Below the pieces are notes generated by a model that ran no database searches, was not told the origin of the DNA, and saw only the letters and a list, made by a program, of their open reading frames with translations. Below, in pieces: positions 3,034 to 39,418 of a DNA stretch of 64,000 nt (its first letter is position 1; each line of letters opens with the position of its first letter). Both the position numbers and the translations under genes were made by a program. Source of the stretch: Granulosicoccus sp. (lineage in GTDB: Bacteria > Pseudomonadota > Gammaproteobacteria > Granulosicoccales > Granulosicoccaceae); the NCBI GenBank assembly GCA_965224525.1, contig OZ245050.1:410021-474020 (forward strand), in the 5' to 3' direction.

Positions 3034-3267
3034 ATGACAAAAAACATCACATTAAGTGCTAATGAACAGCTCATTGAACTGGCGCGCAGCAGAGCGCAAA
3101 AAAGGCATACAACGCTGAATGCCGAATTTCGCCTGTGGCTCGAACAGTATGTGGGTGAAGATCATGAAGGTAAAAGCCGTGTTCATGCTTATAGACGGCT
3201 AATGGCTTCACTTGGGGCCGTAAAACCCGGTCGGCACTTTACCCGGGATGATATGAATGAGCGATAG
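3034..3267 (+). CDS. VapB-like antitoxin (RHH/Arc-MetJ-like); internal Met start chosen
   Basis: MTKNITLSANEQLIELARSRAQKRHTTLNAEFRLWLEQY... It overlaps the downstream PIN gene by 11 nt. The ORF track frame starts at 2992. Confidence 0.55.
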   Translation: MTKNITLSANEQLIELARSRAQKRHTTLNAEFRLWLEQYVGEDHEGKSRVHAYRRLMASLGAVKPGRHFTRDDMNER

Positions 3268-3739
3268 ATTCTTTATCGATACAAATATCCTGATCTACAC
3301 ATTTGACCGATCCAGCCCATCGAAGCGTAAAACAGCAATCAGTCTGGTTGAAACAGCTTTAGCCTCCGGCCTCGGATGTATCAGTTTTCAGGTTGTTCAG
3401 GAATGCCTGAATGTGTTGACCCGAAAATTTCGTGTGCCGCTGGATGCCGAACAGGCGCGCAATTATCTACAAACCACATTGATGCCTGTTTGTCGCGTGC
3501 ATTCGTCTATTCCGCTCTATGAAAGAGCGATTGATCTACACGAACGATGGCAGTTCAGCCTGTACGACACGTTGATTCTTGCTTCAGCGCTTGAGGCAAA
3601 CTGTTCTATTCTGTTCAGTGAGGATATGCAGCATAAACAGAAGATTGAATCCCTGGTGGTTATCAATCCGTTTACCGATACCCAACAGGTCAATGATGTA
3701 ACGGACAAATATCAGGTAGATAGCCCGGAGCATCCGTGA
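3257..3739 (+). CDS. vapC: PIN-domain ribonuclease toxin VapC
   Basis: MSDRFFIDTNILIY... carries the N-terminal acidic PIN motif. The 160-aa size and the overlap with the upstream small antitoxin gene fit a VapBC pair. Confidence 0.8.
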   Translation: MSDRFFIDTNILIYTFDRSSPSKRKTAISLVETALASGLGCISFQVVQECLNVLTRKFRVPLDAEQARNYLQTTLMPVCRVHSSIPLYERAIDLHERWQFSLYDTLILASALEANCSILFSEDMQHKQKIESLVVINPFTDTQQVNDVTDKYQVDSPEHP

Positions 3740-3902
3740 ATAGCACAGGTAACAGGTTGTAAATTCATAGTGCGTAGTAGGTTAGGCCCGCGGTTCCGAT
3801 ATTTTGGGCTGCTACATCGGCGAGTCAAAACGGCGGCTGGCAAAAGCGTTTGCCGATGTGGCCTTTTTGCGTTTGAGGTTGTGGGTGCCGTATGCTCTGC
3901 GT

Positions 3903-4460
3903 ATGAGCAATGCAGCGATCGACCGCGCAACTTACGTGGATATTCTGAAGTTGCCGGAAAACATCACGGGTGAAGTCATCAACGGGGTGCTTTATCAGCA
4001 ACCACGCCCGGCGCCGAGGCATGCCTATGCATCGTCCCGCCTGGGGGCGGCCATCAATTCCCCGTTCGATCGTGGGAAAGGCGGCCCGGGTGGCTGGTGG
4101 ATTCTTGATGAACCGGAATGCCACCTGGGAGCCGATATCCTGGTTCCGGATATCGCAGGCTGGCGCCGTGAACGCATGTCCTCTTTGCCGGATACGGCCT
4201 GGTTTGAATTGCCGCCTGACTGGGTTTGTGAGGTGTTGTCGCCTTCAACTGCCAGTAAAGACCGTATAGATAAACAGGGTGTATACCTGCGTGAGGGTGT
4301 TGGATTTCTCTGGTTTATCGACCCGGAGGCTAAAACACTGGAAGCCTTTCAGTTGACATCGGGCAGTTGGCTGCTCATTGCGGCACTAAGTGGTGAGGAT
4401 CAGGCGGCGGTTGCACCTTTTGACGACGTGCCGTTTGATCTGGGTGAGTTGTGGGCATGA
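3903..4460 (+). CDS. Uma2-family (DUF820) PD-(D/E)xK-like putative endonuclease
   Basis: The ...LSVDDY.../...ELI.GE.....P...H motif class is present. The internal Met gives a 185-aa product, typical of Uma2. The ORF track frame opens at 3804. Confidence 0.65.
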   Translation: MSNAAIDRATYVDILKLPENITGEVINGVLYQQPRPAPRHAYASSRLGAAINSPFDRGKGGPGGWWILDEPECHLGADILVPDIAGWRRERMSSLPDTAWFELPPDWVCEVLSPSTASKDRIDKQGVYLREGVGFLWFIDPEAKTLEAFQLTSGSWLLIAALSGEDQAAVAPFDDVPFDLGELWA

Positions 4461-4573
4461 GATGGCGCAGGCATAGAGGCGCTATTCTCGTCCGGGCATC
4501 GTTAAACTCGTGAGTGTCACCTGAGTGGCCCCACCATGGGACTAACATACCCGGAAAGGTACAGTAACAGATC

Positions 4574-7252
4574 ATGACAACCCGTAAATCAACCAAACTG
4601 ACACTGCACGACAAACTCTCTCGGCTGACATTTGTGCAGGCCTGCAAACTGCTGGGGCCCGATGGCGCCGGGTTTATCAGTCGCGGCGGGCGCTTCGACA
4701 TCGATATCGATCAACAGGTGACTCTGACCCGCCAGCAGTTCCGTCTTAACCTTGTTGGGCGCAAGCCATCGGTTGTCACCATTAAACTGGCAGACACCGC
4801 TACCCGGCGACTGGCCTGGCATTGCTCGACATCAAACGGTGCCTGCGATGAAGTGGGGGCTGCGTTGTCGCTGATTCTCGAAGAGAAAACTGCACTGGGG
4901 CTGGCAGCGGCACCGGATAGCCCGTTGCTACGTGCTGATCTCAGTGAGCTGGAGATCAACGCACTCGAAGTGACTGCGCGTGAAGAACGTGCAAAAAAAG
5001 AGCGCATGACGCTACGCTCAGCCAACCCCAAAACCCCCTGGACCGACTACCAGGTCACCAATAAAGCGTCGGGTAAAACCTATCGAGTGGCGTTGCGTGG
5101 GCATCATCCGGGTGAGTCGTATTGTTCCTGTCCCGACTATCGCAAAAATACCTTTGGCCTTTGCAAGCACACGATTCATGTATTGAACAAGGTGAAGCGC
5201 AAGTTCAGTGCCGCACAATTGCGACGCCCATTCAAACTCAAAGAGATTATCGTCTACCTGCAGTACGGTAAATCAGTGCAATTGCGCGCGGGTGTGCCCG
5301 ACAAGATTGATCGTGACGCTGAACGCTTGTTAAAACAGTACCGTAAGGGTTCCGTCAAGTCTATTCCAGCGCTGTTACGCGCCGTTGGAAAACTGGAGAA
5401 CGCGGGCCACACGGTCACTATTTATCCCGACGCCGAGCAGTACATCCAGCAGCGTTGCTGGCAGGCAAGAATCGAAAAACATGTAGCAGAGATTCGCAAG
5501 AAGCCAGCGAAACATCCATTGCGCAAGACGTTGTTGAAAGCCGAGTTGCTGCCGTATCAGCTCGATGGCATCGCGTTTGCGGCAGGAGCCGGCCGCGCCG
5601 TGCTTGCCGACGATATGGGTTTGGGTAAAACCATCCAGGGCATAGGTGTGGCGGCGCTGCTCAAGCGTGAAGCGAATATCTCGAGAGTTCTGATCGTTTG
5701 TCCCGCGTCACTCAAATCACAGTGGCGTGCAGAGATACACAAATTTTCTGATTTGGATTGCCAGCTGGTGGTGGGTAGTTCCGATAGCCGTGCCGCCCAG
5801 TATGACAACGACTGTTTTTTCACAGTGTGCAACTATGAGCAGGTGCTGCGGGACATATTGAGCATTGAGCAGGTACGTTGGGATCTCATCATTCTTGACG
5901 AAGGTCAGCGCATCAAGAACTGGGAAGCCAAGACCACACGCGTGATCAAGTCATTGAAGTCCCCTTTCGCCCTGGTGTTGTCGGGCACGCCACTGGAAAA
6001 TCGTATTGATGAGCTGTACAGCATTGTCGAGTTTATTGACGATCGCCGCCTCGGCCCCGACTTCCGATTTTATCAACGGCACCGCGTGCTGGATGACAAT
6101 GGCCGGGTTATCGGCTTTCAACACCTTAAGGAACTGCGCAAGAACCTCAAACCGGTGCTGCTGCGGCGCACGCGCGCCTCGGTGCTCGATCAGCTCCCGC
6201 CACGTACGACGGATATCGTTCGCATAGCGCCCACCGAAGAACAGCTCGAGTTACATGGTGCGCACATGAGAATCGTCAACAGCGTCATTGGTAAACCTTT
6301 TCTGAGCGAGATGGATTTGCTGCGTCTGCAAAAAGCCCTGTTGATGTGCCGCATGTCAGCTGACAGCACCTTCCTTTGCGACAAGGAGGCACCCGGTTAT
6401 TCCAGCAAGCTTGAAGCCATTGCGGATTTGTTCGATCGCATATTCAGCGATCCACACCACAAGGTTGTGTTGTTCTCCGAGTGGACGACCATGCTGAATC
6501 TGATTGAACCGCTACTGAAAAAACGCTCTATCGGTTTTGTGCGCCTGGATGGATCTGTGCCACAGAAAAAACGCCCGGCGCTGGTCAGTCAATTCGAGGA
6601 AGACAAGCAGTGTCGCTTGTTCATGGCTACCAATGCGGGTTCAACAGGGCTTAACCTGCAAATTGCCGACACCGTGATCAATGTGGACTTGCCATGGACA
6701 CCGGCGCTGCTGGAACAGCGCATTGGCCGCGTACACCGGATGGGGCAGAAGCGCCCCGTGCATGCATTTGTTCTGGTAACCGAAGACACTCTCGAAGAAA
6801 GCCTGTTGGCCACGCTGTCTGCCAAGCATGAGCTGGCACTGGCAGTACTTGATCCGGATTCGGATGTCGACTCCGTTGATCTGACCACCGGTATTGAGGC
6901 GCTGAAACAACGTCTCGAAGTGTTGCTCGGTGCACAGCCAGAAGCGGAGCGTGATGAGTCACAACGACGTGACGTCGACACCCAAACCAGAGCGCTGGCT
7001 GATCGACAACGCGTGTCGGAGGCTGGCGGACAGTTGCTGAGCGCGGCGTTTAACTTTCTCAGTGAAGTGATACCAGCACAGCCTGACACACCAGCATCGC
7101 AGGCACTGGCGACAGACCTGAAGCAGCGTTTTTCCGACTGTGTTGAACAGGGTGAAGATGGCAAACCGCAATTGACAATTTCGTTACCTGATAATGCGGC
7201 ACTGGATACCCTGGCTGAGTCGTTGGCGCAGTTGTTGGCTGCCCGGCAGTAG
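4574..7252 (+). CDS. SWIM zinc-finger plus SNF2-family (Swi2/Snf2) ATPase/helicase
   Basis: SWIM motif CSCPDYRKNTFGLCKHTIH. SNF2 ATPase motifs LADDMGLGKT, DEGQRIKN and a C-terminal HELICc region (LDGS...ATNAGSTGLNLQ...). Length 892 aa. Confidence 0.85.
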   Translation: MTTRKSTKLTLHDKLSRLTFVQACKLLGPDGAGFISRGGRFDIDIDQQVTLTRQQFRLNLVGRKPSVVTIKLADTATRRLAWHCSTSNGACDEVGAALSLILEEKTALGLAAAPDSPLLRADLSELEINALEVTAREERAKKERMTLRSANPKTPWTDYQVTNKASGKTYRVALRGHHPGESYCSCPDYRKNTFGLCKHTIHVLNKVKRKFSAAQLRRPFKLKEIIVYLQYGKSVQLRAGVPDKIDRDAERLLKQYRKGSVKSIPALLRAVGKLENAGHTVTIYPDAEQYIQQRCWQARIEKHVAEIRKKPAKHPLRKTLLKAELLPYQLDGIAFAAGAGRAVLADDMGLGKTIQGIGVAALLKREANISRVLIVCPASLKSQWRAEIHKFSDLDCQLVVGSSDSRAAQYDNDCFFTVCNYEQVLRDILSIEQVRWDLIILDEGQRIKNWEAKTTRVIKSLKSPFALVLSGTPLENRIDELYSIVEFIDDRRLGPDFRFYQRHRVLDDNGRVIGFQHLKELRKNLKPVLLRRTRASVLDQLPPRTTDIVRIAPTEEQLELHGAHMRIVNSVIGKPFLSEMDLLRLQKALLMCRMSADSTFLCDKEAPGYSSKLEAIADLFDRIFSDPHHKVVLFSEWTTMLNLIEPLLKKRSIGFVRLDGSVPQKKRPALVSQFEEDKQCRLFMATNAGSTGLNLQIADTVINVDLPWTPALLEQRIGRVHRMGQKRPVHAFVLVTEDTLEESLLATLSAKHELALAVLDPDSDVDSVDLTTGIEALKQRLEVLLGAQPEAERDESQRRDVDTQTRALADRQRVSEAGGQLLSAAFNFLSEVIPAQPDTPASQALATDLKQRFSDCVEQGEDGKPQLTISLPDNAALDTLAESLAQLLAARQ

Positions 7253-18807: not shown

Positions 18808-19734
18808 ATGCGTCACTTCATCATCGATACAGACACCGCCTCCGACGATGCCGTTGCCATTATGATGGCATTGTCGGCACCTGATATTATCGTCGATGCC
18901 ATTACCATTGTCGCGGGCAATGTAGGCGTCAGGCAGGGCAGTATCAACGCGCGCTACACACTGGAGGTCTGCAGGGCGCAAGTGCCAGTCTATGAAGGTT
19001 GTACGCAACCCTGGTTGCAGTCGCTGGCAATCGCAGACTGGTTTCATGGTGCTGATGGTATGGGTGACATGGATTATCCGGTACCTGCTCAAGCGGCAGA
19101 GGGTCGCCATGCTGTCAACGAACTCATTAAACGCTTCCGCGATTCGCCGGGAAACATCACGCTGGTTACGCTTGGGCCGCTAACGAATATTGCGACGGCA
19201 CTTGCCATTGAGCCGTGTTTGGCCGACTGGGTAAAGCACTGTTACATCATGGGCGGTGCGGCCAACACGGTAGGCAATGTGACACCTGCTGCTGAATACA
19301 ACATCTGGTGTGATCCGGAAGCGGCGCGCAAGGTGTTGCATTCGGGTATGCCGATAACCCTGCTTGGCTGGGAATTGAGTCGAGATGACGCCACCTTGTC
19401 CGATGCTGAGATGTTGGCATTCCGGGCACTTGCTACCAACAAGGCAACGGTTGCCATGGATTGCAACGGCACGGCATTGAAAGCGGTGCGTGAAATTCAA
19501 GGGGAGGCCGGGCTGGCACTGGCAGATCCGGTTGCCATGTCAGTTGCCATTGATGAATCCATCGCAACCGATATGGGGTATCACTTTGTTGATATTGCAA
19601 CGGGTGATGAGTTGACACGTGGTATGAGCGTCGTTGACAAACTCAACGTGTGTAAGCGTGAGCCCAATGCGCGTGTTTGTTTTGCTATAGATGCTGCGCG
19701 CTGGAAAAAACAGCTATTCTCGGCACTGCGTTGA
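18808..19734 (+). CDS. Inosine-uridine-preferring nucleoside hydrolase family protein
   Basis: N-terminal [18 protein letters not shown] is the IU_nuc_hydro aspartate-cluster motif. Length 308 aa. Confidence 0.8.
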
Positions 19735-19759
19735 ACAGTTATGCAGGCGGTGCGGGTAA

Positions 19760-20707
19760 TTATTTGCGTCGGAAGCAGGCAGTGTTATCCAGCCAGGCGA
19801 GAATCGATTCAACAATGCGGCTGTCTATGGGTTGTTTTATCAGAGACGAATAACTCATCAGTGATGGTTCATTGAAGTCAGCTCTTAATATATGCGTCAT
19901 ATCCGGGATTGTAATTGCAGTTACTGTTTCGGGTAGTAATTCACGCAGCCGATCTGCATCCGTTGGCAGGCACTGTAAGTCTTTTTCACCGGCTACTGCA
20001 AGGGTTGGCAGAGACACGCTGATATGAATTTTCACCGGGTTCAGTGCTGCAATTTCGCGTAACCACTTCGCGTTGACTTTGCGAAACCCTTTACGGAAAA
20101 ACGGTTTTTTGGACTCCCTGGCACGTTGAAAGTGCTTGCGCTGTTTCACTAATTGGTCTCCCTGTAAACGCAGTATCAAGCGGATGAACTTGCCGTAGAC
20201 GCCCGGTAGTGTCGTGATGGTTTCCAGTGTCTGTCTGGCTTGCCGCTCAGTGACTGCCTGTAATGGTTCGAGAAAAGGGGCGAGCAAAATCTGACCGTTG
20301 ACCGCTTTCCGGTCTGCAGCGATTTGCGGACAAATGATAGTGCCTTCGCTGTGGCCCAGTACACAGGTTATCTGAGAAGTGTCATCCAGCCGGGACGTCA
20401 TGTAATTCAGCCATGCGCGGGCATCCGATACCAGATCGGTATGCCCGACGGCTGCATATTCACCTTCGCTGTCACCGCAGCCTCGTTTGTCATAGCGCAA
20501 GGTGTGGATGCCGGCGCTGGCCAGCTGTTCGGCCAGCGTATTGAAGAGATTAAGCTTGAATTTCTTGCTGTTTTGATTGCGGTCGTGCTGGCCGCTGCCG
20601 GCAATCAGCAGTATCGAGATTCCACTCGCAGCTCCGGTCGGGTGGCAAAGCGTGCCAGCGAGCTGGTGACCCTCATTGCTGATGGTGACTGATTCTTCTT
20701 TGCTCAT
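19760..20707 (-). CDS. alpha/beta-fold hydrolase
   Basis: GHSEG nucleophile elbow (GxSxG). Length 315 aa. Confidence 0.65.
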   Translation of the reverse strand: MSKEESVTISNEGHQLAGTLCHPTGAASGISILLIAGSGQHDRNQNSKKFKLNLFNTLAEQLASAGIHTLRYDKRGCGDSEGEYAAVGHTDLVSDARAWLNYMTSRLDDTSQITCVLGHSEGTIICPQIAADRKAVNGQILLAPFLEPLQAVTERQARQTLETITTLPGVYGKFIRLILRLQGDQLVKQRKHFQRARESKKPFFRKGFRKVNAKWLREIAALNPVKIHISVSLPTLAVAGEKDLQCLPTDADRLRELLPETVTAITIPDMTHILRADFNEPSLMSYSSLIKQPIDSRIVESILAWLDNTACFRRK

Positions 20708-29792: not shown

Positions 29793-30989
29793 CTAGCTGT
29801 CGCGGCCGGCTCTTCCCAGCTGGAATGCTGTGCTCAACCCCAGAAACAGAAACAACAAGTCCAGCGGTCCAAGAGAATCAATTACCATTGATGTGGTAGA
29901 TGCGCCAACAACAGAGCGCTCCAGTTCCATCAAGTCGGAGTCGTTCCAGTCTGAACTGCTTGAGTCATTGTCGATATGGTCTTCAAGCCAGGGTTGTGTG
30001 TACTCGCGAAAATCGCTCAGCTCGGCATTGGTTACAAACAAGGCTGTTTTGGCATCCGAGTATTCGTGCTCTACCATGAAGGCCTTGATTGAATCATCAT
30101 CTTTACGGATAGTTGCAAAGGCCTCCGCATCAAGCGTGACCTCTTCCAGGGCTGCTTGCAGTTCTCCCATGTTATCGCTGTCACCAAAAAGTTCAGCAAC
30201 TTCCGATTGGTAGCTGGCCATGGTCATGTACTTGCCTCCAAAGATCGCCATCAGCGCCAGTAAAGCGCACACGATACCGATGCCTGTGCCACGTCCGCCA
30301 GTCATGGCTGCGGCTGTTCCCACCGCGCCACCAATTCCCCAGGCAACCAGCCCCAGCTCGTAGCCGAAGGCAACGGCAATCAGTTTCCAGACAACGGCGC
30401 CGACGACGGCCGCTGCGATGGGCAGGGCGATGCTGGCCATGGAAAAGGTGTTGTCGTTTGTCTCGATCTGCACTCGGTTGGTGGGTCTGCTACGGGGTGT
30501 TTCTGTATCGGTGTATGATATTTCTTGCGGTATCGCACGGGCTATAGCCGCGTCGTTCTGCTTGAATTTGTCGAAAAATATACCGCAACCAGTACATTGT
30601 TCAGACTTGCTTTGTGCCAACTGACATTTTGGGCAACTGAATCCGGTCTTTGCGCCGCTGCTTGCTGCGGTAGATGGCATGTCGTCTACCTGTACCAGAC
30701 TTAACCCGTCCGGTTTGGGCTCTGATGTAACAGCTAGTGGCCTGTTTCCATCTTCTGTATGCTCATTCAACGTGACTGACATGCCGATTTTCATCAGTTG
30801 CTGTTTGTAGGCCTCCGCATCTTTTCTGGACAGGTCCTTTTTTATCAACTTTTGCTTTTCAACATAGACCGCAGCTTTATCAGTCGGCACACCGAATATA
30901 GAAGAGAATGCAGTGACCACGTTCTCGATCTCAAAACCGGACTCGACCGCTCCGCTGGAAGAAATGCTGTAGGTTGCAGAAGTGCTCAT
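29793..30989 (-). CDS. Membrane protein with a cytoplasmic four-Cys zinc-ribbon (CPKC...CTGC). It sits upstream of, and is co-directional with, the M50 protease.
   Basis: Motifs and hydrophobic segments were read from the ORF. No family was assigned. Confidence 0.45.
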   Translation of the reverse strand: MSTSATYSISSSGAVESGFEIENVVTAFSSIFGVPTDKAAVYVEKQKLIKKDLSRKDAEAYKQQLMKIGMSVTLNEHTEDGNRPLAVTSEPKPDGLSLVQVDDMPSTAASSGAKTGFSCPKCQLAQSKSEQCTGCGIFFDKFKQNDAAIARAIPQEISYTDTETPRSRPTNRVQIETNDNTFSMASIALPIAAAVVGAVVWKLIAVAFGYELGLVAWGIGGAVGTAAAMTGGRGTGIGIVCALLALMAIFGGKYMTMASYQSEVAELFGDSDNMGELQAALEEVTLDAEAFATIRKDDDSIKAFMVEHEYSDAKTALFVTNAELSDFREYTQPWLEDHIDNDSSSSDWNDSDLMELERSVVGASTTSMVIDSLGPLDLLFLFLGLSTAFQLGRAGRDS

Positions 30990-31233
30990 CTGGCGTCCGG
31001 TGGTTAATCAAAAAATGCATATTGCAGCTACACAGGGCAGCGTTCATCAAGGGGGTCATTTTTAACGCTGGCAATACAGATTGTGATCGAGTGCTGATAA
31101 CTGCCTGGAAAATATCTGAGTACTTGACGTGCGCCCGGCGCTAAAAAGGTACCGACGGGTGGTAACGATCCACCGTCTCAAGCTCTTCAAACTTGCGCTA
31201 ATCCATCTCAGCTACATCGGCAGTTGGTAGACG

Positions 31234-31308
31234 TGGCGGACGCGACTGGAGTCGAACCAATCTTGCTGGAGTCAAAGTCCAGAGCATTCCCACGATTGCT
31301 ACACGCCC
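31234..31308 (-). tRNA. tRNA-Gln (anticodon UUG)
   Basis: Hand-folded cloverleaf: acceptor GGGCGTG/CGCGTCC (7 bp including G-U pairs), D-arm GCA..TGC, anticodon arm CTGGA-CTTTGAC-TCCAG, T-arm ATTGG-TTCGACT-CCAGT, discriminator G, CCA encoded. Total 75 nt. Confidence 0.8.
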
Positions 31309-31310
31309 GT

Positions 31311-31345
31311 ACAAAAAGGAGGGTGGATCGCACCACCCTCCACAC
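31311..31345 (-). terminator. Rho-independent terminator of the SPFH gene (GGAGGGTGG-tgcgat-CCACCCTCC followed by TTTTT on the minus strand)
   Basis: A 9-bp GC-rich stem and a U-tract lie directly after the stop at 31355. Confidence 0.6.
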
Positions 31346-31354
31346 AACAAGAAC

Positions 31355-32647
31355 TTACTGCTTCAATCGAACCAGTTCGTTCATGACGCCATCGAGGCCA
31401 CCGTAAACAGACAGGCTGCCGACGTTCTCGGTTACCCGCTCCAGTGTCTCGAGTTCCTTCAGGCGCAATGCCACGGCGTTGCTCTCCATCACCTTGGCGG
31501 TGTTGAGCAGGGAGCGCGTTGCATTGGTCTCTTCACGGCGACGAATTACATTCGCCTGGGCTGCCTTTTCGGCTTCAACCACCTTGCCCAGCAACTCCTT
31601 CATATCGCCAGGCAGGATGATGTCCTTGACACCAACACTCTTCACATTGATGCCATAACCGGAAAAGCGCTGCTTGATGAATTCAGCCACATCGCGATCA
31701 ATGACTGTCTTGTCTTCGAGCAAGGCATCCAGCGTACGGGTACCGACGGCTGCACGCAGACCGAACTGAATCTCCTTGTACAGGTGATCCAGAGGGTCTT
31801 TCAGCACTTGAACTGCCCTGGCGGCATCGTTGAACTGCCAGGTCGCGGTGACGTTGATGCGCAATGCCACCTTGTCCCGAGTCAGGATTTCCTGGCCCTG
31901 AACGTCCAGCGTCTGTACACGTAAATCCATCAGCTCCACCCGTACTTCACGGTTGAAACGCCAGAACGCATGCAGACCAGCTGCCAGGGTGTCGACAAAT
32001 TCGCCGTCAACATACAGCAGTCCAACATGACCGGCTGCAATGGTCAGCGAATGTACCGCTTTGGTTACCTGCCGAGCTGACTGCGCGCTGGATGGGTACA
32101 ACAGGTGTCGTGCCACTTGAGTATCCAGTGCCAATCCTGCTTGCAGGTCGACACGTTCAACTCTGGTGCTGACTACACCCTTCCAGTACAAAGCACGGTC
32201 GGAAGGACCGACTATGGTGCTCAACCGCTTGTTGTGGAAAACCAGAGCAGCTTCGCTAGCATTGGTTTCAACCACTTCAAACAGCCGTTCGACCTCAGCG
32301 CGTTCGGCTTCCATCAGGTAGTCAAGCAGACGGTGAGTGAACTCAGGTGTTGATACGTCGAATTGCTCAACAGCGTAGCTGCCTCGCAGGTCGAAGTATC
32401 GGTAAGTCCCTGGTGCAAGGAAAGACAGGAAATCTCCGTCCTTGAACAGGAGACCGCGTTCGTGCTTGCGCACGATGAACTTCTGATAGAACAGCATGAT
32501 GCGTTCTCCTTTGTTGGTGAATGAACCGTCATCAGACGGGATGGGTTGCGTTGCTGCCCGTTTCATGCGATTGACCGTTCTGAGTTGATCGCCTTTACGT
32601 GCCTGCACTGCTCTTTCGACTTCGGAGAGCCGTTGCATACCTCTCAT
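31355..32647 (-). CDS. SPFH/Band-7 (flotillin/slipin-like) domain protein
   Basis: Conserved band-7 region ...INVKSVGVKDIILPGDMKELL...AEKAAQANVIRRREETNA... Start chosen at MRGMQRL with an upstream GGGAGG; the ORF track frame opens at 32710. Confidence 0.7.
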   Translation of the reverse strand: MRGMQRLSEVERAVQARKGDQLRTVNRMKRAATQPIPSDDGSFTNKGERIMLFYQKFIVRKHERGLLFKDGDFLSFLAPGTYRYFDLRGSYAVEQFDVSTPEFTHRLLDYLMEAERAEVERLFEVVETNASEAALVFHNKRLSTIVGPSDRALYWKGVVSTRVERVDLQAGLALDTQVARHLLYPSSAQSARQVTKAVHSLTIAAGHVGLLYVDGEFVDTLAAGLHAFWRFNREVRVELMDLRVQTLDVQGQEILTRDKVALRINVTATWQFNDAARAVQVLKDPLDHLYKEIQFGLRAAVGTRTLDALLEDKTVIDRDVAEFIKQRFSGYGINVKSVGVKDIILPGDMKELLGKVVEAEKAAQANVIRRREETNATRSLLNTAKVMESNAVALRLKELETLERVTENVGSLSVYGGLDGVMNELVRLKQ

Positions 32648-32957
32648 GCAGCACCTCCCGTGCGTCGTTGAGGAAAGAACTAAAGATAAGTTAGAAGCAC
32701 CCGCTGCCACAGTTCAGCTGCGAATTACCGGTATCGGACAATCGACTACACCGCGCTCGCAACGTCAGGTGGCGGTCAGTTCGGTCTCATACACAGACCG
32801 GACTACAGCAACGTGACGTAACGCAGGTGGCACAGCGATACCATCTGAAAGTCCGTTAATCGGCAAACGTCACTGCTGTCTCAACCGAACAGAATTCTTG
32901 CGAATTCCAATCGTTATCAACAGGCAACGGGTGCAGTGGCGGGTGATGTTCTCACCC

Positions 32958-33014
32958 TGGAAGCGGAGTCGAACCGCAGGCTTTTGGCCTTACCGTGAGG
33001 TCGTTTATGGACCT
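32958..33014 (-). other. tRNA 3'-half-like remnant: anticodon-arm-like AGGTC-CATAAAC-GACCT, a long variable region, and T-arm GCGG-TTCGACT-CCGC with a TTCCA tail. Not a complete tRNA.
   Basis: Hand folding finds no D-arm or 5' acceptor strand. The last 22 nt resemble the 3' end of the neighbouring tRNA-like gene. Confidence 0.35.
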
Positions 33015-33016
33015 TG

Positions 33017-33089
33017 GTGTGGAAGCCGGAATCGAACCGGCAACACCCGGATTATGAGTCCGGTGCTCTACCTGTTGAGCTATTCCCCG
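33017..33089 (-). tRNA. tRNA-Met/Ile2-like gene (anticodon CAU) with a non-canonical acceptor stem. Possibly a pseudo-tRNA or an att-site-modified tRNA.
   Basis: Canonical D-arm GCTC-AACAGGTA-GAGC, anticodon arm CCGGA-CTCATAA-TCCGG and T-arm GCCGG-TTCGATT-CCGGC. The 3' acceptor strand TTCCACA pairs with 5' CGGGGAA at only 5 of 7 positions, and the 3' terminus reads ...C-CAA. Confidence 0.45.
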
Positions 33090-33344
33090 GTGGATGAGCT
33101 GTTCATTCGTTTGGTACACACGGTGCAATGGCTAGCGTAGGTGCGCCGGATGGGATCAGAACCCATAACCGCTAAACACAATGAACAGAGCTCGTCCCTG
33201 GTTGCCCGCAGTGGCGAATTACCACTGCACTATCAATGTGATAGTGAAGCTCTACCATTGGAGCATCAGGCGAATATGTACTGCATTGTTTAAAACTGTT
33301 TACTGCAGCCAGATTGTAAAAGAGCGCATCCGGGGCCAAAAAAA

Positions 33345-33376
33345 AGCCCCGAATGGAACGATCCATCCGGGGCTTT
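33345..33376 (+). terminator. Terminator-like hairpin (gccccg-aatgga-acga-tccat-ccggggc followed by TTTT). Its 5' arm can alternatively pair with an upstream cggggc (33331-33336), giving antiterminator-like alternative structures.
   Basis: Read directly from the sequence. No annotated plus-strand gene lies upstream. Confidence 0.4.
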
Positions 33377-33934
33377 TAACAAAGCGCTATCGGAAGGCTC
33401 GTTGATCGAGCCTTCCTGAAACTTGTCAGGTGGGGCTCAACACATGGACTCCAGCTGGTGGCCGAGTCCTTTGAATTCGGTTGGTTGAAAAAACGTTTCC
33501 ATGCTTGCTTGAATCAATACATCACTGTGCATCAGCTGTATAAACACAGCTCGCATTGCACTACTACGCGCATAGAATGCCGTTGCATTTACCGACAGCC
33601 GGTGCACACAGATCTGTGTTGGATATGTAATTTGGTGTTTCATGGGGCCGCGATTATAACGATGATTAAGGAGATGTCAACAGTGAAATACGTGAAAGTT
33701 TCGCTGGATCGTTACGATGTCACACATTTGCCTATCAAACTTAAACGGTATTTGGCTACGACGTGCAATAAGAAATGCCGATAGCAGGTAACTCGGATAT
33801 GTTAAAATTAAAGAGATAATTGATGCAGAAAAATACAGTTTAAATCCTCAACGTTTGAGCGGTTAGTCCGACAAACAGGATAGCTATTCAAGCTTGATCT
33901 GCTGAGTCCATGAAAGAATGATAGTGATACATGA

Positions 33935-34351
33935 TTGTGCGTCGCTTTGTACTATAGGGAGCGAGAGTTGGCCATATTCGCAATAGATTTTGACGGAACC
34001 TGCGTGGACCACCGTTATCCGGAAACTGGCCCGGATGTGCCTTGCGCGGTCGATTTTCTCCGGGTGCTTGCCGTCAATGAAAATCAGCTTATTTTGTTTA
34101 CGATGCGTTCTGGCGATGAGCTTGAAAATGCGGTTGAGTGGTTTAGTGAACGGGAACTGCCATTGATGGGTATCAACCAGAATCCGGACCAACTGGAATG
34201 GACCAGCAGCCCAAAAGCTTACGCGCATTTTTATATTGATGATGCGGCGGTAGGTTGTCCATTGATACAACCACCGGGTTTTGAACGTGAGTGTGTCGAC
34301 TGGCGATCAATAGCGGAATTACTTGGCTACGATGATAGTATTTTTGAATAA
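33935..34351 (+). CDS. Small HAD-superfamily phosphoesterase (nucleotidase / polynucleotide-3'-phosphatase-like minimal HAD)
   Basis: Motif I FAIDFDGTCVD (DxDGT) and motif IV FYIDDAAV. Length 138 aa. It lies 112 bp upstream of the SWIM-SNF2 gene. Confidence 0.6.
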   Translation: MCVALYYRERELAIFAIDFDGTCVDHRYPETGPDVPCAVDFLRVLAVNENQLILFTMRSGDELENAVEWFSERELPLMGINQNPDQLEWTSSPKAYAHFYIDDAAVGCPLIQPPGFERECVDWRSIAELLGYDDSIFE

Positions 34352-34463
34352 TAGGCTTCCGTTATGTGCTGTTCACCTGAACAGCGGTCACGCATAGAGG
34401 CCGTTGAGATATGCGACACTACCGCAATGGAAATGGTCCCGAAACTGTCGAAAATAGTATTGA

Positions 34464-37400
34464 ATGCCCTTTAAATTCAACGCATTGAGACCGCATGACA
34501 TAGTCACTGTCTGTGGTAAGGCTGCGGCCGCCAGAGGGCAGGCGCTATGGCGTAACGAAGCGGTTCTTGCGCTGCATCACCGCAGCGAATATTCAATAGT
34601 CGGGCTGGTGCAGGGCTCTCTGTCTGCCCCCTATGAAGTAGCCGTTCTGATAGATGATGACGACCTTATTTGTGATTGCAGTTGTCCGGTCAGCTTTGAT
34701 TGCAAGCATGTGGCAGCACTGTTGTACCAGCAAATCCACCTACAGGGCGAAACTCAAAACGCGCAGTATCCGGGTGAGCATCTGAATGGCGGGTCGAAGA
34801 ACGGCAGACGAGACCAAAGCGGAGAGGCAAAAACATCAGATGCGGTAGACGACTGGCTTGAGCACTTGTTTGTTGATCACCAGCAAGTTGATTTGTCCGA
34901 ACCTGAGCCGGAGCCTGGTGATCAGTTAGTATTATATGAACTGGATGCCGCAGAAAATACAAGGAGCCCTGGTCCAATAGTCAAGGTCGTGCAAAGTCGT
35001 TTGTTAAAACGCGGTGGTTTGGGCAAGGAAAAACCGTACTATTACGAGCAAAACTACTACTATCCGCGTTGGGTTACCGCGCTTGATAAGACGATTTTCA
35101 AGATTTATGAATCGCGGACAATCAACGATGCCAATGCCTGGATGCATGCCGGTAGCTCGCAGCTGGAGTTAACCGGTTCTCGCGGCTATGCCGTACTCGA
35201 AAAGCTGCTGATAACACAACGCCTGTACCTTGGTTCACAACGTGAACAGACTTTAACGCGAGGCGAACCCCGCTCACTGACAGTCGATTGGCAGCTTGGA
35301 GATGATGCGCAGTATCAATTGCACATTGCTCTTTCAGAGTGTGAAAACTGGCAATTGATACCCACAGAACCACCTTGGTATCTGGATGCTAACCGGCATT
35401 GTATTGGCTTGCTACATGATGCACTCTCGGCGCGCTTGTTGCGCTCGTTGTTGTCTGTGCCACCTGTTCCGAAAGAACGAGCACAGGTGTTCAGTAACCT
35501 GATAGCGACACACCTGCCGGACCTGCATGTGCCATTGCCGGTTGAACCCGATATCAGTGTGGTTGATGAAACGCCGCGGCCAATGCTGCTTTTGCAATCG
35601 CGTAATGATTCAGCAAATATTGCATCATTCTATGCAAGTCTCATGATGCGCTATGGTCCCTGGGCACTGGCATTACGTGGTGACAATGCACCACTAATGG
35701 TAGAGGCAGAGGACGAGGGCATTGGTACAGCGACAATACGTCGAAAACCAAAGCTGGAAATGCAGATTGCTGGTCAATTTATGCGGCAGTTCTCGGGCAT
35801 GCGTCCGGCTTTGGCGCGTGATCCAACGTTCTTTACGATGGCTGACTGGCTACCGTCGACTGGCAGTGCATTGGGCCAGCTGCAGCAATGGCAAAGCATT
35901 ATTGACGACATACCTGTGCTCGAAAGCCAAGGGTGGGTCGTGCGCATTATCCCGCCGTTTGATATTCAGGTGCAGCAGATTTCAGAAGTACAGGCATCCA
36001 TTAAACCCGCTGAAGGAGGCTGGTTCGATATGGGGCTGCACGTTGTTCACGATGGGCAAAGTTTTGATCTGGTACCGCATATTGCAGACTGGTTGAGCGA
36101 TGGGGCACCGGATCAGCCACTGTTGATTCAAAGTGACTCAGGTGTGTTTGCCGAGGTGCCGGTGACGCTGATTCAACCGATTGCCGATACCATGCTGGAA
36201 TTGTTTGACAACCCGTCCGAAGCGCAATCATTACGCGTATCGCCGGCTCGGGCGCTGACGCTGAATGCATTGGATGAGCAGTGGCAGATGCATGGTATTT
36301 CTTCAGTCTGGCAAGGCGGCGACAAGCTGTTTAAATTGGCTGAAAAGCTCAAGACGTTTACCGGCATCAAACACCGAAAATTGCCAAATACAGTCAAGGC
36401 AACATTGCGTCCGTATCAGCTGGATGGCGTAGCCTGGCTGGGTTTTCTCAGCAAATACGGGTTCAATGGCATCCTTGCTGATGATATGGGTCTGGGCAAG
36501 ACTCTACAAACGTTGGCATTTCTTGAGCAGCAACGTGTCGCTCGAAAACTCGCCGGTCCGGTATTAATCATTGCGCCTACCAGTTTGCTAAGCAACTGGG
36601 CAAGAGAGGCTGCCAGATTCACACCCAAACTCACATCGCGTATCTGGCATGGCTCTGAACGAAAAGACTCGCCACTGGCAGATGAAAAAGCGAAGCTTGT
36701 CATCACCAGTTACGCTTTGGCGCTGCGCGATCATGAACTATTGGCTGCCATAAAATTTTCCTGGCTGGTGCTGGATGAGGCACAGGCCATAAAGAATCCT
36801 GCTGCCAAGATCACACAGGCGGTAAAGCTACTGCCTATAGAGCGGCGTTTGTGTTTGACCGGTACGCCACTTGAAAATCACCTGCACGAACTGTGGTCAC
36901 AGTTCGATTTTCTGATGCCAAACCTGTTAGGTTCCCGACAGCACTTTGCGCGCTATTTCAGAACCCCGATCGAGAACCACGGAAATTCTGAGCGACAGGC
37001 AAGGCTTAATGCAATGATTCGACCGTTTATGCTACGTCGCAAGAAAGAAGAAGTCGCAGCCGATTTACCGCCAAAAACTGAAATCATCCGTGAGGTATTG
37101 CTGGAGGGCCCGCAAGCAACGCTATATGAAAGTATTCGAGCCAGCATGGAGGCGAAAGTACGCCGCGTTGTTGAACAGCGTGGGTTGGCACGCAGCCATA
37201 TCGAAATGCTTGAGGCTCTACTAAAGCTCAGGCAGACATGCTGTCATCCGCAGTTGGTCAAACTACCCAGCGCGCGCAAGGTAACCACATCGGCAAAAAC
37301 CGAATTGGTGATGTCAATGCTCACTGAATTGATCAGTGAAGGGAAAAAAATCCTGCTGTTCTCGCAGTTTACAGAAATGCTGGGTCTGCTTGAAACCGAG

Positions 37401-37811
37401 CTGCACAAAGCAGGTATCGACTACGTCAAACTGACTGGCCGTACACGGAAACGCGATGTGGTCATCGACGCATTCCAGCAAGGCGATGTGCCGTTATTTC
37501 TTATCAGCTTGAAAGCCGGTGGTACTGGGCTCAACCTGACGGCCGCGGATACCGTGATTCACTACGATCCCTGGTGGAACCCGGCGGTTGAAAATCAGGC
37601 AAGTGATCGGGCCCATCGTATCGGTCAGAACAAACCGGTATTTGTTTATAAGCTGATAACGCTTGGCACCGTTGAAGAGAAAATACTACTGATGCAGGAA
37701 AAGAAACAAAAACTGGCCGACCAGACCCTGGGCAAAGGTGCCGCTGAAGGGCTGAGTAAACTTAAGGCTGACGATATCCTGCAACTGTTTTCACCCGCCG
37801 AAAGCGGTTAG
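34464..37811 (+). CDS. Second SWIM zinc-finger plus SNF2-family ATPase/helicase (1115 aa). A distinct paralogue with a roughly 500-aa linker region.
   Basis: SWIM motif CDCSCPVSFDCKHVAAL. SNF2 motifs LADDMGLGKT, LDEAQAIKN and a HELICc region ...GGTGLNLTAADTVIHYDPWWNPAVENQASDRAHRIGQ. Confidence 0.85.
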   Translation: MPFKFNALRPHDIVTVCGKAAAARGQALWRNEAVLALHHRSEYSIVGLVQGSLSAPYEVAVLIDDDDLICDCSCPVSFDCKHVAALLYQQIHLQGETQNAQYPGEHLNGGSKNGRRDQSGEAKTSDAVDDWLEHLFVDHQQVDLSEPEPEPGDQLVLYELDAAENTRSPGPIVKVVQSRLLKRGGLGKEKPYYYEQNYYYPRWVTALDKTIFKIYESRTINDANAWMHAGSSQLELTGSRGYAVLEKLLITQRLYLGSQREQTLTRGEPRSLTVDWQLGDDAQYQLHIALSECENWQLIPTEPPWYLDANRHCIGLLHDALSARLLRSLLSVPPVPKERAQVFSNLIATHLPDLHVPLPVEPDISVVDETPRPMLLLQSRNDSANIASFYASLMMRYGPWALALRGDNAPLMVEAEDEGIGTATIRRKPKLEMQIAGQFMRQFSGMRPALARDPTFFTMADWLPSTGSALGQLQQWQSIIDDIPVLESQGWVVRIIPPFDIQVQQISEVQASIKPAEGGWFDMGLHVVHDGQSFDLVPHIADWLSDGAPDQPLLIQSDSGVFAEVPVTLIQPIADTMLELFDNPSEAQSLRVSPARALTLNALDEQWQMHGISSVWQGGDKLFKLAEKLKTFTGIKHRKLPNTVKATLRPYQLDGVAWLGFLSKYGFNGILADDMGLGKTLQTLAFLEQQRVARKLAGPVLIIAPTSLLSNWAREAARFTPKLTSRIWHGSERKDSPLADEKAKLVITSYALALRDHELLAAIKFSWLVLDEAQAIKNPAAKITQAVKLLPIERRLCLTGTPLENHLHELWSQFDFLMPNLLGSRQHFARYFRTPIENHGNSERQARLNAMIRPFMLRRKKEEVAADLPPKTEIIREVLLEGPQATLYESIRASMEAKVRRVVEQRGLARSHIEMLEALLKLRQTCCHPQLVKLPSARKVTTSAKTELVMSMLTELISEGKKILLFSQFTEMLGLLETELHKAGIDYVKLTGRTRKRDVVIDAFQQGDVPLFLISLKAGGTGLNLTAADTVIHYDPWWNPAVENQASDRAHRIGQNKPVFVYKLITLGTVEEKILLMQEKKQKLADQTLGKGAAEGLSKLKADDILQLFSPAESG

Positions 37812-38519: not shown

Positions 38520-39418
38520 GATCCGTCACCTGTCAGTTCGTTTATTGTGACAAAACGCTTGCGCGACGTTATGTGTGTGGTGAACTGTACAGATTCCAGG
38601 TGGGTGTCAGTTGATTCAGCGCCTTGTTGACTGATCATTTGTACCGCGTGTTCACAATCAGAAATTGTAATTCCTGGTATATGAGGTAGTTTGGGTAGAT
38701 TGCTTGCTGCTACGGAAACTGCGGTTTCATCCAGGCCGAGGTTTATCTGCTTGACGTCAGCCAGATCGGATGCGTTGCTTATGTCATTGCCATCGACGTC
38801 CTGACATTTTTGTATCGAGAACTCTAAAGCCAGAGATTCCAGTTCTAAATCAGTTGACAATGTCCAACTTAAAGTCAGTTCGCCATATCGGGGGATAAGC
38901 TGCAAGGACTGATCAAGAACAAGCGATTCGACATCGGCCAGTGTAACAATGTTATCCGGAGCGTCTGACCGTGAGGGGCTTCCGCGATACATACCGACTC
39001 GGAGGCTTGGTGAATCGACAATAGAAAGGTCGGTTCGATAAGTCAGTTCAGCATCGCGCCGATACAGAGTTTTTCTTTGGTCACCCCATGTTGCAACAAG
39101 GTGGTCGCCATCAACCAGACGAACAGGGATTAAATCGCCGATGATAAACCCACCCTCTGTATTTCTGTTTTGTTGACCGTCCAGGTAAACCTGGCCGCTT
39201 ATGCTTGCCAGGCCAGACTCGTAGTCAACCCGGGCTGTAAGCACAGGTGAAAGCCGGTTGGTTGAAAAGTCGGCGGAGCGATTTTCTCCGCAGCCTGCTA
39301 CCAATGCCGCGACAATCAGCAGGGATGTTGTCTGTCGCAGGCGAAGGGCTTGCGTAAGACCGGAGTATTTACATTGTCCGTTACCCGCGATCATTTTCGG
39401 TTTTTTCATACGACTCAT
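38516..39418 (-). CDS. Lipoprotein of unknown function, co-transcribed with the pilus genes
   Basis: Lipobox LVAGC after a signal peptide. Length 300 aa. Confidence 0.45.
   Translation of the reverse strand: MSRMKKPKMIAGNGQCKYSGLTQALRLRQTTSLLIVAALVAGCGENRSADFSTNRLSPVLTARVDYESGLASISGQVYLDGQQNRNTEGGFIIGDLIPVRLVDGDHLVATWGDQRKTLYRRDAELTYRTDLSIVDSPSLRVGMYRGSPSRSDAPDNIVTLADVESLVLDQSLQLIPRYGELTLSWTLSTDLELESLALEFSIQKCQDVDGNDISNASDLADVKQINLGLDETAVSVAASNLPKLPHIPGITISDCEHAVQMISQQGAESTDTHLESVQFTTHITSRKRFVTINELTGDGS

Follow-up and report, generated by a model that had tools for sequence, protein, structure and literature searches.

A tRNA-like RNA and a Band-7 gene behind a predicted leader-peptide attenuator in Granulosicoccus

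The 64,000-nucleotide (nt) stretch analysed here, called the window throughout (Granulosicoccus sp., assembly GCA_965224525.1, contig OZ245050.1, positions 410,021 to 474,020 of the forward strand), lies on a gammaproteobacterial chromosome and carries a group of tRNA-like elements and hairpins adjoining an open reading frame (ORF) that encodes an SPFH/Band-7 protein. Read along the minus strand, the order is promoter, leader ORF, terminator/antiterminator switch, boxA, decayed tRNA-Val, element C, b7a-tRNA (band-7-associated tRNA-like RNA), element B, Band-7, tRNA-Gln and tRNA-Phe (Table 1). ARAGORN calls three tRNAs in the window, all on the minus strand: the tRNA-Phe, the tRNA-Gln, and a tRNA-Met(cat) at 33016-33089 where b7a-tRNA lies. 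In our reading, positions 33680-31148 probably form a single transcription unit, a collapsed copy of a horizontally spread operon that combines a tRNA array, Band-7 and RNA repair and that would be controlled by attenuation. The parts and their order are conserved across related loci, and this order is kept beside SPFH/Band-7 homologues in dozens of Gamma- and Betaproteobacteria despite unrelated neighbours. Judged by this recurrence, with compensatory base changes, the elements are not chance. The pairing of b7a-tRNA with Band-7 is already known as a prediction and the module belongs to a known family; the control by its leader, as far as alignments and predicted folds indicate, looks like a new form of leader-peptide attenuation acting on tRNAs and tRNA-repair factors.

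The comparison draws on a scan with one genome per species, which gave 80 loci (L001-L080) carrying Band-7 homologues at 49-73% identity in Granulosicoccaceae, Woeseiaceae, metagenome-assembled genomes of Pseudomonadales, Pseudomonas and Burkholderiales. Band-7 is the sole window gene, among those tested, that is common to these 80 loci; an M19 peptidase matches weakly in two. Sequence 5' of Band-7 was sufficient in 74 loci, and in 66 of these ARAGORN places a co-oriented tRNA or tRNA-like gene at a distance of under 650 nt before the start of Band-7. The closest relatives (74-77% identity, Granulosicoccus antarcticus included) show the order promoter, leader, boxA, C, b7a-tRNA, B, Band-7 and RtcB, with Band-7 followed by a 398-aa RtcB; this linkage to RtcB is present in L084 and L086.

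The 5' end of the unit was compared in 26 homologous leaders for the promoter and the ORF, and in 21 leaders for alignment and ViennaRNA folds. In 25 of the 26, a TTGACA-N17-TATA[CAG]T promoter and a GC-rich discriminator are followed by an ATG 8-11 nt past the -10 element, so that the mRNA would be effectively leaderless. A sigma32-type -10 element (CCCCATNT) considered at the same site was set aside, as no correctly spaced -35 was seen by eye. In these 25 leaders the ORF stays open for 40-68 codons, while 0-6 stops interrupt the other frames, and it invariably terminates 20-24 nt before segment 2 of the switch, that is, on segment 1; in the window, the TGA stop (33439-33437) likewise overlaps segment 1. 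The penultimate codon varies between ATG, GTG, ATC, ATA and ATT (Met/Val/Ile) and the stop between TAG, TAA and TGA, which is as expected of a translated frame. An N-terminal pattern, M-K/T-x-x-x-Q-x-L, is conserved, and most leader peptides end G-E/D-P-[M/V/I]-x-stop. A two-codon mini-ORF before segment 1 (ATG-NNN-stop with a Shine-Dalgarno-like GGGGA) was ruled out: the frame is open 40-68 codons back to the promoter ATG, the supposed ATG is the Met/Val/Ile codon, and GGGGAACCG codes for Gly-Glu-Pro.

All 20 amino acids occur in 15 of the 26 leader peptides, at lengths of 40-63 residues (e.g. L004, 6449-6628). Compared with stop-free shuffles of the same ORFs, this yields P=0.015-0.14 per peptide, and 5e-5 when 14 lineage representatives are combined by Fisher's method with independence assumed. 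The window peptide misses Trp only, and the statistic is non-significant for it individually.

Downstream of the ORF, window positions 33431-33309 are homologous to a stretch of about 150 nt that in relatives precedes the array's first tRNA by about 200 nt. Its conserved pieces are segment 1, the 2:3 hairpin (GGAAGGCUCGA/UCGAACCUUCC), the terminator, a GCCCCGG copy and boxA (GCTCTTTAACAA). The initial annotation had described a GC hairpin with a T-tract, an upstream CGGGGC with which it could refold, and possibly an unannotated attenuator or small RNA. The hairpin reads on the minus strand as an intrinsic terminator (stem 33373-33346, U8 33345-33338), the extra CGGGGC/GCCCCG copy is at 33337-33330, just past it, and the suggested attenuator corresponds to a conserved leader-peptide switch with mutually exclusive helices. 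When the nascent RNA was folded with ViennaRNA as far as the terminator loop, the 1:2 helix formed together with pairing of segment 3 to the 5' arm of the terminator (3:4) in 21 of 21 leaders; when the first 22 nt were blocked, imitating a ribosome at the stop codon, the 2:3 hairpin formed and the terminator arm was left free, again in all 21. The terminator state is 90% paired in the alignment, with a covariation score of 0.235 reached by 0 of 500 shuffles. The antiterminator state (1:2 plus 3:4) is paired in 86.4% of cells, compared with 22-57% in controls with slid helix partners. The window leader itself folds at -51.7 kcal/mol (z=-7.9). At the GC hairpin, Rfam (scanned over 30500-34500 at E<=10) returned just terminator-driven chance matches to NsiR1 and His_leader.

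The arrangement is that of an attenuator: an ORF stops on the first of a set of helices that exclude one another, and the set closes with an intrinsic terminator bearing U8. The alignments and folds support reading the hairpins, with their terminator and alternative pairings, as a conserved leader-peptide switch, in which finished translation would lead to termination and stalled or absent translation to read-through. Past the terminator, GCTCTTTAACAA is identical to the E. coli rrn boxA (PMC2724277, Table 1) in 14 of the 21 aligned leaders and the remainder, the window included, are one base off. A second unit of promoter, leaderless ORF and attenuator, without boxA, occurs at about 2880-3140 in L007, where it precedes an ABC_membrane_3 (PF13748) gene (3142-4005); this suggests that the switch is a portable regulatory cassette.

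The tRNA-like RNA between the leader and Band-7 scores 60.3 bits with the Rfam tRNA model at 33017-33089. The Rfam alignment flags exactly two non-canonical acceptor pairs, C1.A72 and G3.A70, and perfect D, anticodon and T arms, just as the initial annotation had described them. That annotation had allowed that its reading of the letters was wrong and that a normal tRNA-Met with a canonical acceptor lay here; the letters had been read correctly and the acceptor is non-canonical. A tRNA-Met or initiator would have a 7-bp acceptor, or, for initiators, only C1.A72 open together with three G-C pairs in the anticodon stem and A11:U24, and an NCCA end, whereas the window RNA has two acceptor mismatches, an anticodon stem of CCGGA/UCCGG, C11:G24, and CCAA after position 72; its anticodon loop, CUCAUAA, is canonical. 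About 52 of 67 b7a-tRNA copies leave position 1:72 unpaired, encoded CCA is rare, the body is highly conserved, and in the Granulosicoccus lineage just 4-6 acceptor pairs are left. The acceptor mismatch of the window copy is therefore a family trait, neither decay nor a reading error, and in its position, its fold and its family traits the RNA agrees with the b7a-tRNA found beside Band-7 genes.

This name goes back to Burroughs and Aravind (2016), who, as cited in a later preprint (bioRxiv 10.1101/312249), predicted a "band 7-associated tRNA" beside RtcB. The family is unlikely to consist of ordinary decoders, to judge by its variable anticodons, odd loops, open 1:72 and rare CCA, even though the window copy has a canonical CAU loop. 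The apparent anticodon of the upstream call changes from locus to locus (CAU, UGU, CUU, UCU, CAA, GAU, UGG and others), often within loops of 6 or 8 nt, and differs even between near-identical copies; the eight anticodon-loop columns, 10% of all columns, carry 37% of the differences between close copies.

Two additional conserved structured RNAs flank b7a-tRNA and are defined here from the alignments. Element B follows it and reads GGTC-CATAAAC-GACC ... AGGC-CAAAA-GCCT-GCGG-TTCGACT-CCGC-TTCCA-GGGTGA-GAACA-TCACCC. Its first hairpin, H1, has a hypervariable loop of 7 nt, and a 4-bp T-arm-like hairpin contains an invariant GGTTCGAnTCC. All four helices show compensatory changes across 28 sequences (fold z=-2.3), and Rfam has no match to element B (33013-32941) at E<=10. 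The RNAalifold structure of b7a-tRNA plus 110 nt in 28 loci is a cloverleaf followed by four hairpins: 29 of its 36 pairs show compensatory changes and pairing holds in 96.1% of cells. Its covariation score of 0.493 compares with 0.06-0.09 in slid controls and was reached by 0 of 500 shuffles. Part of element B had been taken for a remnant of a tRNA 3' half that imperfectly repeats the first tRNA. The repeat is there (GCGG-TTCGACT-CCGC plus CTTCCA against GCCGG-TTCGATT-CCGGC-TTCCA), but the piece is no remnant, as it belongs to the conserved four-hairpin element. Kissing between the b7a-tRNA anticodon loop and the H1 loop was considered, and no complementarity was seen by eye in the sequences compared. 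No Y RNA or YrlA appears among the Rfam matches listed, which are tRNA or at chance level.

Element C, of about 110 nt, lies directly 5' of b7a-tRNA; RNAalifold finds 20 pairs, 8 of them with compensatory changes. A sigma54 promoter inside it was rejected: its GG-N9-GC spacing is one base short of GG-N10-GC, and rtcR is absent. Upstream again, the 75 nt at 33273-33199 show an in-register alignment to the tRNA-Val(tac) located 5' of element C in L004, L005, L007, L010, L011, L016 and L017. Here the term "degenerate tRNA", which the initial annotation applied more widely, does hold: the acceptor is mostly unpaired, the anticodon and T arms are remodelled, and neither ARAGORN nor Rfam (E<=10) makes a call. 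The D-arm-like element reported in this stretch exists, as GCTCCAATGGTAGAGC at 33264-33249, about 12 nt from where it had been placed. The sequence still folds as a four-way junction (z=-4.8), so it may survive as a processing signal rather than junk.

Table 1. Features of the predicted transcription unit in minus-strand order (positions in the window)
Feature	Position	Strand	Basis and remarks
sigma70 promoter TTGACA-16-TATAAT, GC-rich discriminator CGCGGCCCC after it	33653..33680	-	12/12 consensus match
Leader-peptide ORF, predicted leaderless, 68 codons, MKHQITYPTQ...HQLESMC-stop	33437..33643	-	Frame conserved open in relatives
Whole switch (terminator/antiterminator)	33438-33338	-	
Segment 1, GAGCC CCA CCTGA, predicted to pair with segment 2 if ribosome-free	33426..33438	-	ViennaRNA 21/21 leaders; 85.5% of cells paired, alignment A3
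Segment 2:3 hairpin, GGAAGGCTCG-ATCAA-CGAGCCTTCC	33392..33416	-	Conserved in all aligned leaders; 88.6% paired
Intrinsic terminator, 12-bp stem GCCCCGGATGGA/TCCATTCGGGGC plus U8	33338..33373	-	5' arm predicted to be sequesterable by segment 3 (antiterminator)
Conserved GGCCCCGG (GCCCCGG copy) right past the U-tract, complementary to terminator 3' arm	33330..33337	-	Alignments A2, A3
rrn-type boxA GCTCTTTTACAA, one mismatch to E. coli rrn boxA GCUCUUUAACAA	33314..33325	-	Leader alignment
Decayed tRNA-Val derivative, 75 nt	33199..33273	-	D arm 33264-33249, T-like arm 33226-33210, 3' end GCGGGCA-ACCA
Element C, structured RNA, 3-way junction, T-arm-like ATGGG-TTCTGAT-CCCAT and GGCGCAC...GTGTGTACC	33090..33198	-	Conserved in nearly all loci
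b7a-tRNA, CAU anticodon, C1.A72 and G3.A70 mismatches	33017..33089	-	ARAGORN, Rfam, alignments
Element B, four hairpins	32941..33013	-	H1 33013-32999, H2 32990-32978, T-arm-like 32977-32963, H3 32957-32941
Long 5' untranslated region of Band-7, conserved patches, Shine-Dalgarno GGAGA	32498..32940	-	Alignment to closest relatives
SPFH/Band-7 ("slipin") gene, 380 aa	31355..32497	-	Pfam PF01145, 3.8e-29; homologues 380 aa
Terminator-like hairpin GGAGGGTGG-TGCGAT-CCACCCTCC plus T-run, between Band-7 stop and tRNA-Gln	31318..31341	-	
tRNA-Gln(ttg), leftover of the array's downstream half	31234..31308	-	Same position in L004, L010, L017
tRNA-Phe(gaa), array-type, unusual D and T arms	31148..31221	-	ARAGORN

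The Band-7 protein has no transmembrane segment (maximum hydropathy 1.09), and PADLOC finds nothing relevant on it. Alignment and the conserved Shine-Dalgarno sequence place its start at the ATG at 32497; the mechanical ORF call is over-extended (451 aa, from a GTG at 32710). The hairpin after its stop codon could be a second control point inside the operon. The tRNA-Phe further downstream has D (GCTGAGATGGATTAGC) and T (GGTGGATCGTTACCACC) arms common to the tRNA-Phe of T5-like phages and to the array tRNA-Phe of relatives (L083 1488-1562, L012 8155-8229, L016 5818-5892), and is 89% identical over 55 nt to many Epseptimavirus and Tequintavirus records. This likeness hints at gene exchange between array tRNAs and phage tRNA clusters. 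RtcB, RtcR and RlaP have no match anywhere in the window; a 398-aa ORF at 29793-30989, of the length of the relatives' RtcB, was tried as a candidate and dropped (BLASTP E=0.83, no Pfam match). On the other side of the leader, a SWIM/SNF2 helicase on the plus strand (34464-37811) scores 726 bits with the PADLOC DpdE model, also matches the ZorD and DrmD models, and may be part of a defence system.

Related loci carry far larger versions of the module. At least five same-strand tRNAs surround Band-7 in 24 of the 80 loci, and those with at least 20 same-strand calls are L004 and L017 (28 each), L010 (26) and L038 (25). The window keeps tRNA-Gln and tRNA-Phe alone of the array tRNAs, and its 3 ARAGORN calls in 2 kb fall short of the definition of a tRNA array (at least 20 genes, at least 2 per kb; PMC4758250). 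In L004 the order is HNH endonuclease, leader, 18 tRNAs, Band-7, 10 tRNAs and RtcB, with an integrase nearby. The HNH endonuclease gene (DUF222 plus HNH) lies upstream of the array at 3432-4808, and a phage-type integrase with a transposase fragment lies downstream of it at 19065-20186, which is consistent with horizontal spread.

RtcB is found within 10 kb in 38 of the 80 loci and a divergent rtcR in 21. Pseudomonas-type loci have two tandem tRNA-likes and a divergent rtcR, with RtcB and the RlaP nucleotidyltransferase downstream. In loci of the Pseudomonas/Burkholderiales type (L051-L079, e.g. L066 9590-9732) the tandem tRNA-likes overlap by 2-3 nt; a sigma54 promoter and a divergent rtcR precede them, and a TGCC-N7-GGCA hairpin, the same one as element B's H1, comes next. 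The Citrobacter locus runs rtcR, sigma54 promoter, slipin, nucleotidyltransferase, and a 2026 paper places the P. aeruginosa homologue PaFlo8 within the rtc locus. Arrays and rtcR co-occur in none of the sampled loci, which suggests that array-type attenuation and RtcR are two alternative control routes for the b7a-tRNA/Band-7 module.

The locus shares traits with several described systems. With the b7a-tRNA/Band-7 RNA-repair module it shares a soluble Band-7 gene immediately preceded, on the same strand, by a tRNA-like RNA; RtcB adjoins this gene in the closest relatives, and rtcR, RtcB and RlaP stand with it in Pseudomonas-type loci. Unlike that module, the window has no RtcB, RtcA, RtcR or RlaP and shows a collapsed array behind a leader-peptide attenuator and boxA. 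By analogy, the closest studied system is Ro60 (Rsr) with YrlA/YrlB in the rsr-yrlBA-rtcBA operon of Salmonella, which likewise joins a ring- or cage-forming protein to a non-coding RNA that mimics tRNA; the two are encoded alongside RtcB and are induced when tRNAs are damaged (PMC7790460; 10.1101/312249), with tRNA halves acting via RtcR (PMC7790460). Here the protein has the SPFH fold instead of TROVE, the accompanying RNA is an entire cloverleaf and not a Y RNA carrying a tRNA-like module, and control is predicted to run through attenuation, not RtcR/sigma54.

The long tRNA arrays of cyanobacteria (PMC8421152; Tran et al., 2016, PMC4758250) resemble the larger relatives of the window, which have up to 28 co-oriented tRNAs for nearly all amino acids and linkage to HNH, RtcB, integrase or transposase genes. 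The cyanobacterial arrays spread horizontally, are linked to HNH and RtcB, and in Anabaena are induced by translation stress and regulated through promoter repeats. The window differs in keeping only 2-3 tRNAs, and the Anabaena promoter repeats in not being a leader peptide; Band-7/SPFH proteins and tRNA-like leaders are unmentioned in PMC8421152 and PMC4758250. As in the trp, his and leu attenuators, translation of a short ORF would choose between terminator and antiterminator helices, and a leaderless start is shared with the attenuation leader ORFs of Deinococcus deserti (PMC4007540) and the polycysteine ORFs of mycobacteria (10.1101/834739). In contrast to these attenuators, the ORF is long (40-68 codons) and repeats no single regulatory codon in a run; the five-segment logic would give read-through even if translation were wholly absent, and what it would control are tRNAs and RNA-repair factors instead of genes for amino-acid biosynthesis. 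The 12-nt boxA, identical to that of E. coli in most leaders, stands as in rrn operons in the leader of a highly structured untranslated transcript; here the predicted boxA is downstream of the regulated terminator, and rRNA genes are absent. In a literature search that left Burroughs and Aravind (2016) itself outside, we found no paper joining tRNA arrays with SPFH proteins, and no description of the leaderless leader peptide, often with all 20 amino acids, its boxA and its array context.

The following mechanism can be proposed. RNA polymerase would start at the strong promoter and a 70S ribosome on the 5'-terminal AUG. During normal translation the ribosome at the stop codon would cover segment 1, so that 2:3 pairs, the terminator forms and transcription ends at 33338. 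If the ribosome stalled anywhere in the roughly 60 codons or never loaded, because of damaged or depleted tRNAs or of ribosome poisons, 1:2 would pair, segment 3 would take the 5' arm of the terminator, and polymerase would read through. BoxA would then load the Nus antitermination complex for the highly structured region, and tRNA-processing enzymes would excise the tRNA-like elements, releasing b7a-tRNA and the Band-7 mRNA. The soluble Band-7 oligomer with b7a-tRNA could act as a scaffold or cofactor ribonucleoprotein for tRNA repair, parallel to Ro60-Y RNA with RtcB; in the relatives, the same switch would also turn on a near-complete back-up tRNA set and RtcB. A wider and much more tentative idea, which we hold to be possible at best, is that the leader peptide is a general sensor of damage to any tRNA, through a stall at any codon or failed initiator-tRNA-dependent 70S initiation, and switches on a mobile rescue kit of a full tRNA set, RtcB and the Band-7/b7a-tRNA particle. 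The fast-changing b7a-tRNA and H1 loops would be decoys or baits for anticodon nucleases, and the window would hold a reduced version of the kit.

Several observations weigh against reading the locus as an attenuated b7a-tRNA/Band-7 operon. The covariation score of the antiterminator was matched by 59 of 500 shuffles and so does not rise above them, because the sequences vary little. The amino-acid conservation of the leader peptide is weak, with a codon-position bias of just 183:125:110, and the window peptide is without the C-terminal G-E-P-M-x motif of most relatives. The putative transcription start and the predicted leaderless status of the mRNA come solely from the geometry of the promoter. 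As of the 2018 preprint (bioRxiv 10.1101/312249), b7a-tRNA had never been validated experimentally, and its presumed binding to Band-7 is deduced from the linkage of the genes. The AlphaFold model of Band-7 is poor (predicted local distance difference test score 62.9), its N-terminal 145 residues too poor for a fold search. Finally, with the array lost and RtcB absent within 64 kb, the window copy may be a decaying relic.

This last point can be extended to the whole locus, as a neutral relic in which a decaying array holds one functional tRNA-Met among pseudogenes, the tRNA-like pieces are functionless and Band-7 is an unrelated passenger. The loss of nearly all array tRNAs and of RtcB would fit, as would the truly degenerate tRNA at 33273-33199 and the canonical loop and 60-bit score of the window b7a-tRNA. 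We nevertheless consider a mere relic unlikely: b7a-tRNA, B and C are kept with compensatory changes in loci that have no array (L009, L013, L014, L018-L030, Pseudomonas), and anticodon switches between near-identical copies, together with loops of other than 7 nt, are hard to reconcile with conserved decoding. More improbable still, in our estimation, is that the imperfect tRNA 3'-end repeats are attachment (att) scars of an integrase bordering the SNF2/SWIM islet, as the initial annotation proposed; we give this idea hardly any credence. tRNA 3' ends are common integration sites, the T-arm and tail stretches of b7a-tRNA and element B are alike, the integrase and transposase fragment of L004 lie less than 8 kb from the module, and an exact 14-nt direct repeat (CGGTTGGTTGAAAA, 33478-33491 and 39255-39268) brackets the SNF2 block. 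With about 0.3 such pairs expected in 12 kb, however, that repeat is at chance level, and it bears no relation to the tRNA ends. The window holds no second copy of either tRNA 3' end (up to 3 mismatches in 23 nt) and no other convincing direct repeat; the tRNA-like elements all point away from the islet and keep their sequence, order and structure by Band-7 in loci without the SNF2 block; and every helix of the supposed remnant shows compensatory changes. The att reading is rejected because of the order conserved in the 66 of 74 loci, the compensatory helices and the missing second repeat copy.

The leader, too, admits other readings. The 68-codon ORF could encode a functional small protein with the hairpin as its constitutive terminator, the downstream RNAs and Band-7 being transcribed from a separate promoter, possibly in element C. 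The ORF is indeed open in all lineages with a conserved N-terminal pattern and C-terminal motif, and the TGGCGCAC-N-CGCT of element C recalls the sigma54 promoters of rtcR-type loci. This seems to us quite improbable given that the stop is held at a fixed distance from segment 2 and the mutually exclusive helices are conserved, that boxA, effective only on RNA from an upstream promoter, lies no more than about 15 nt past the terminator in array-type leaders, and that the element C motif departs from the standard spacing with no rtcR at hand. A ligand acting in trans, whether a protein, a tRNA fragment or the Band-7/b7a-tRNA particle in feedback, might also set the switch in place of the ribosome by binding segment 1 or the 2:3 hairpin. 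Loci of the RtcR type do sense tRNA halves (PMC7790460), and the GGAAGGCUCGA of the 2:3 hairpin is almost invariant, beyond the needs of pairing; such a ligand would leave unexplained why, in 25 of 26 leaders, a conserved leaderless ORF comes to its end precisely on segment 1, and we think this reading very unlikely. Control by the translating ribosome remains our preferred reading of the switch.

For annotation, the locus shows that a gene-only view of this 1.7-kb "intergenic" region overlooks a 68-codon ORF and several RNAs, and suggests that "tRNA-Met" calls of this kind should be neither counted as decoders nor taken as att sites. We know of no account of how long tRNA arrays are regulated in Proteobacteria. 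The window and its relatives join the b7a-tRNA/Band-7 prediction, which is ten years old and computational, to the regulation of tRNA arrays. Control by an attenuator would be an alternative to the RtcR/sigma54 route of Pseudomonas and enterobacteria, and the control element would tie the expression of back-up tRNAs and of tRNA repair directly to the health of translation.

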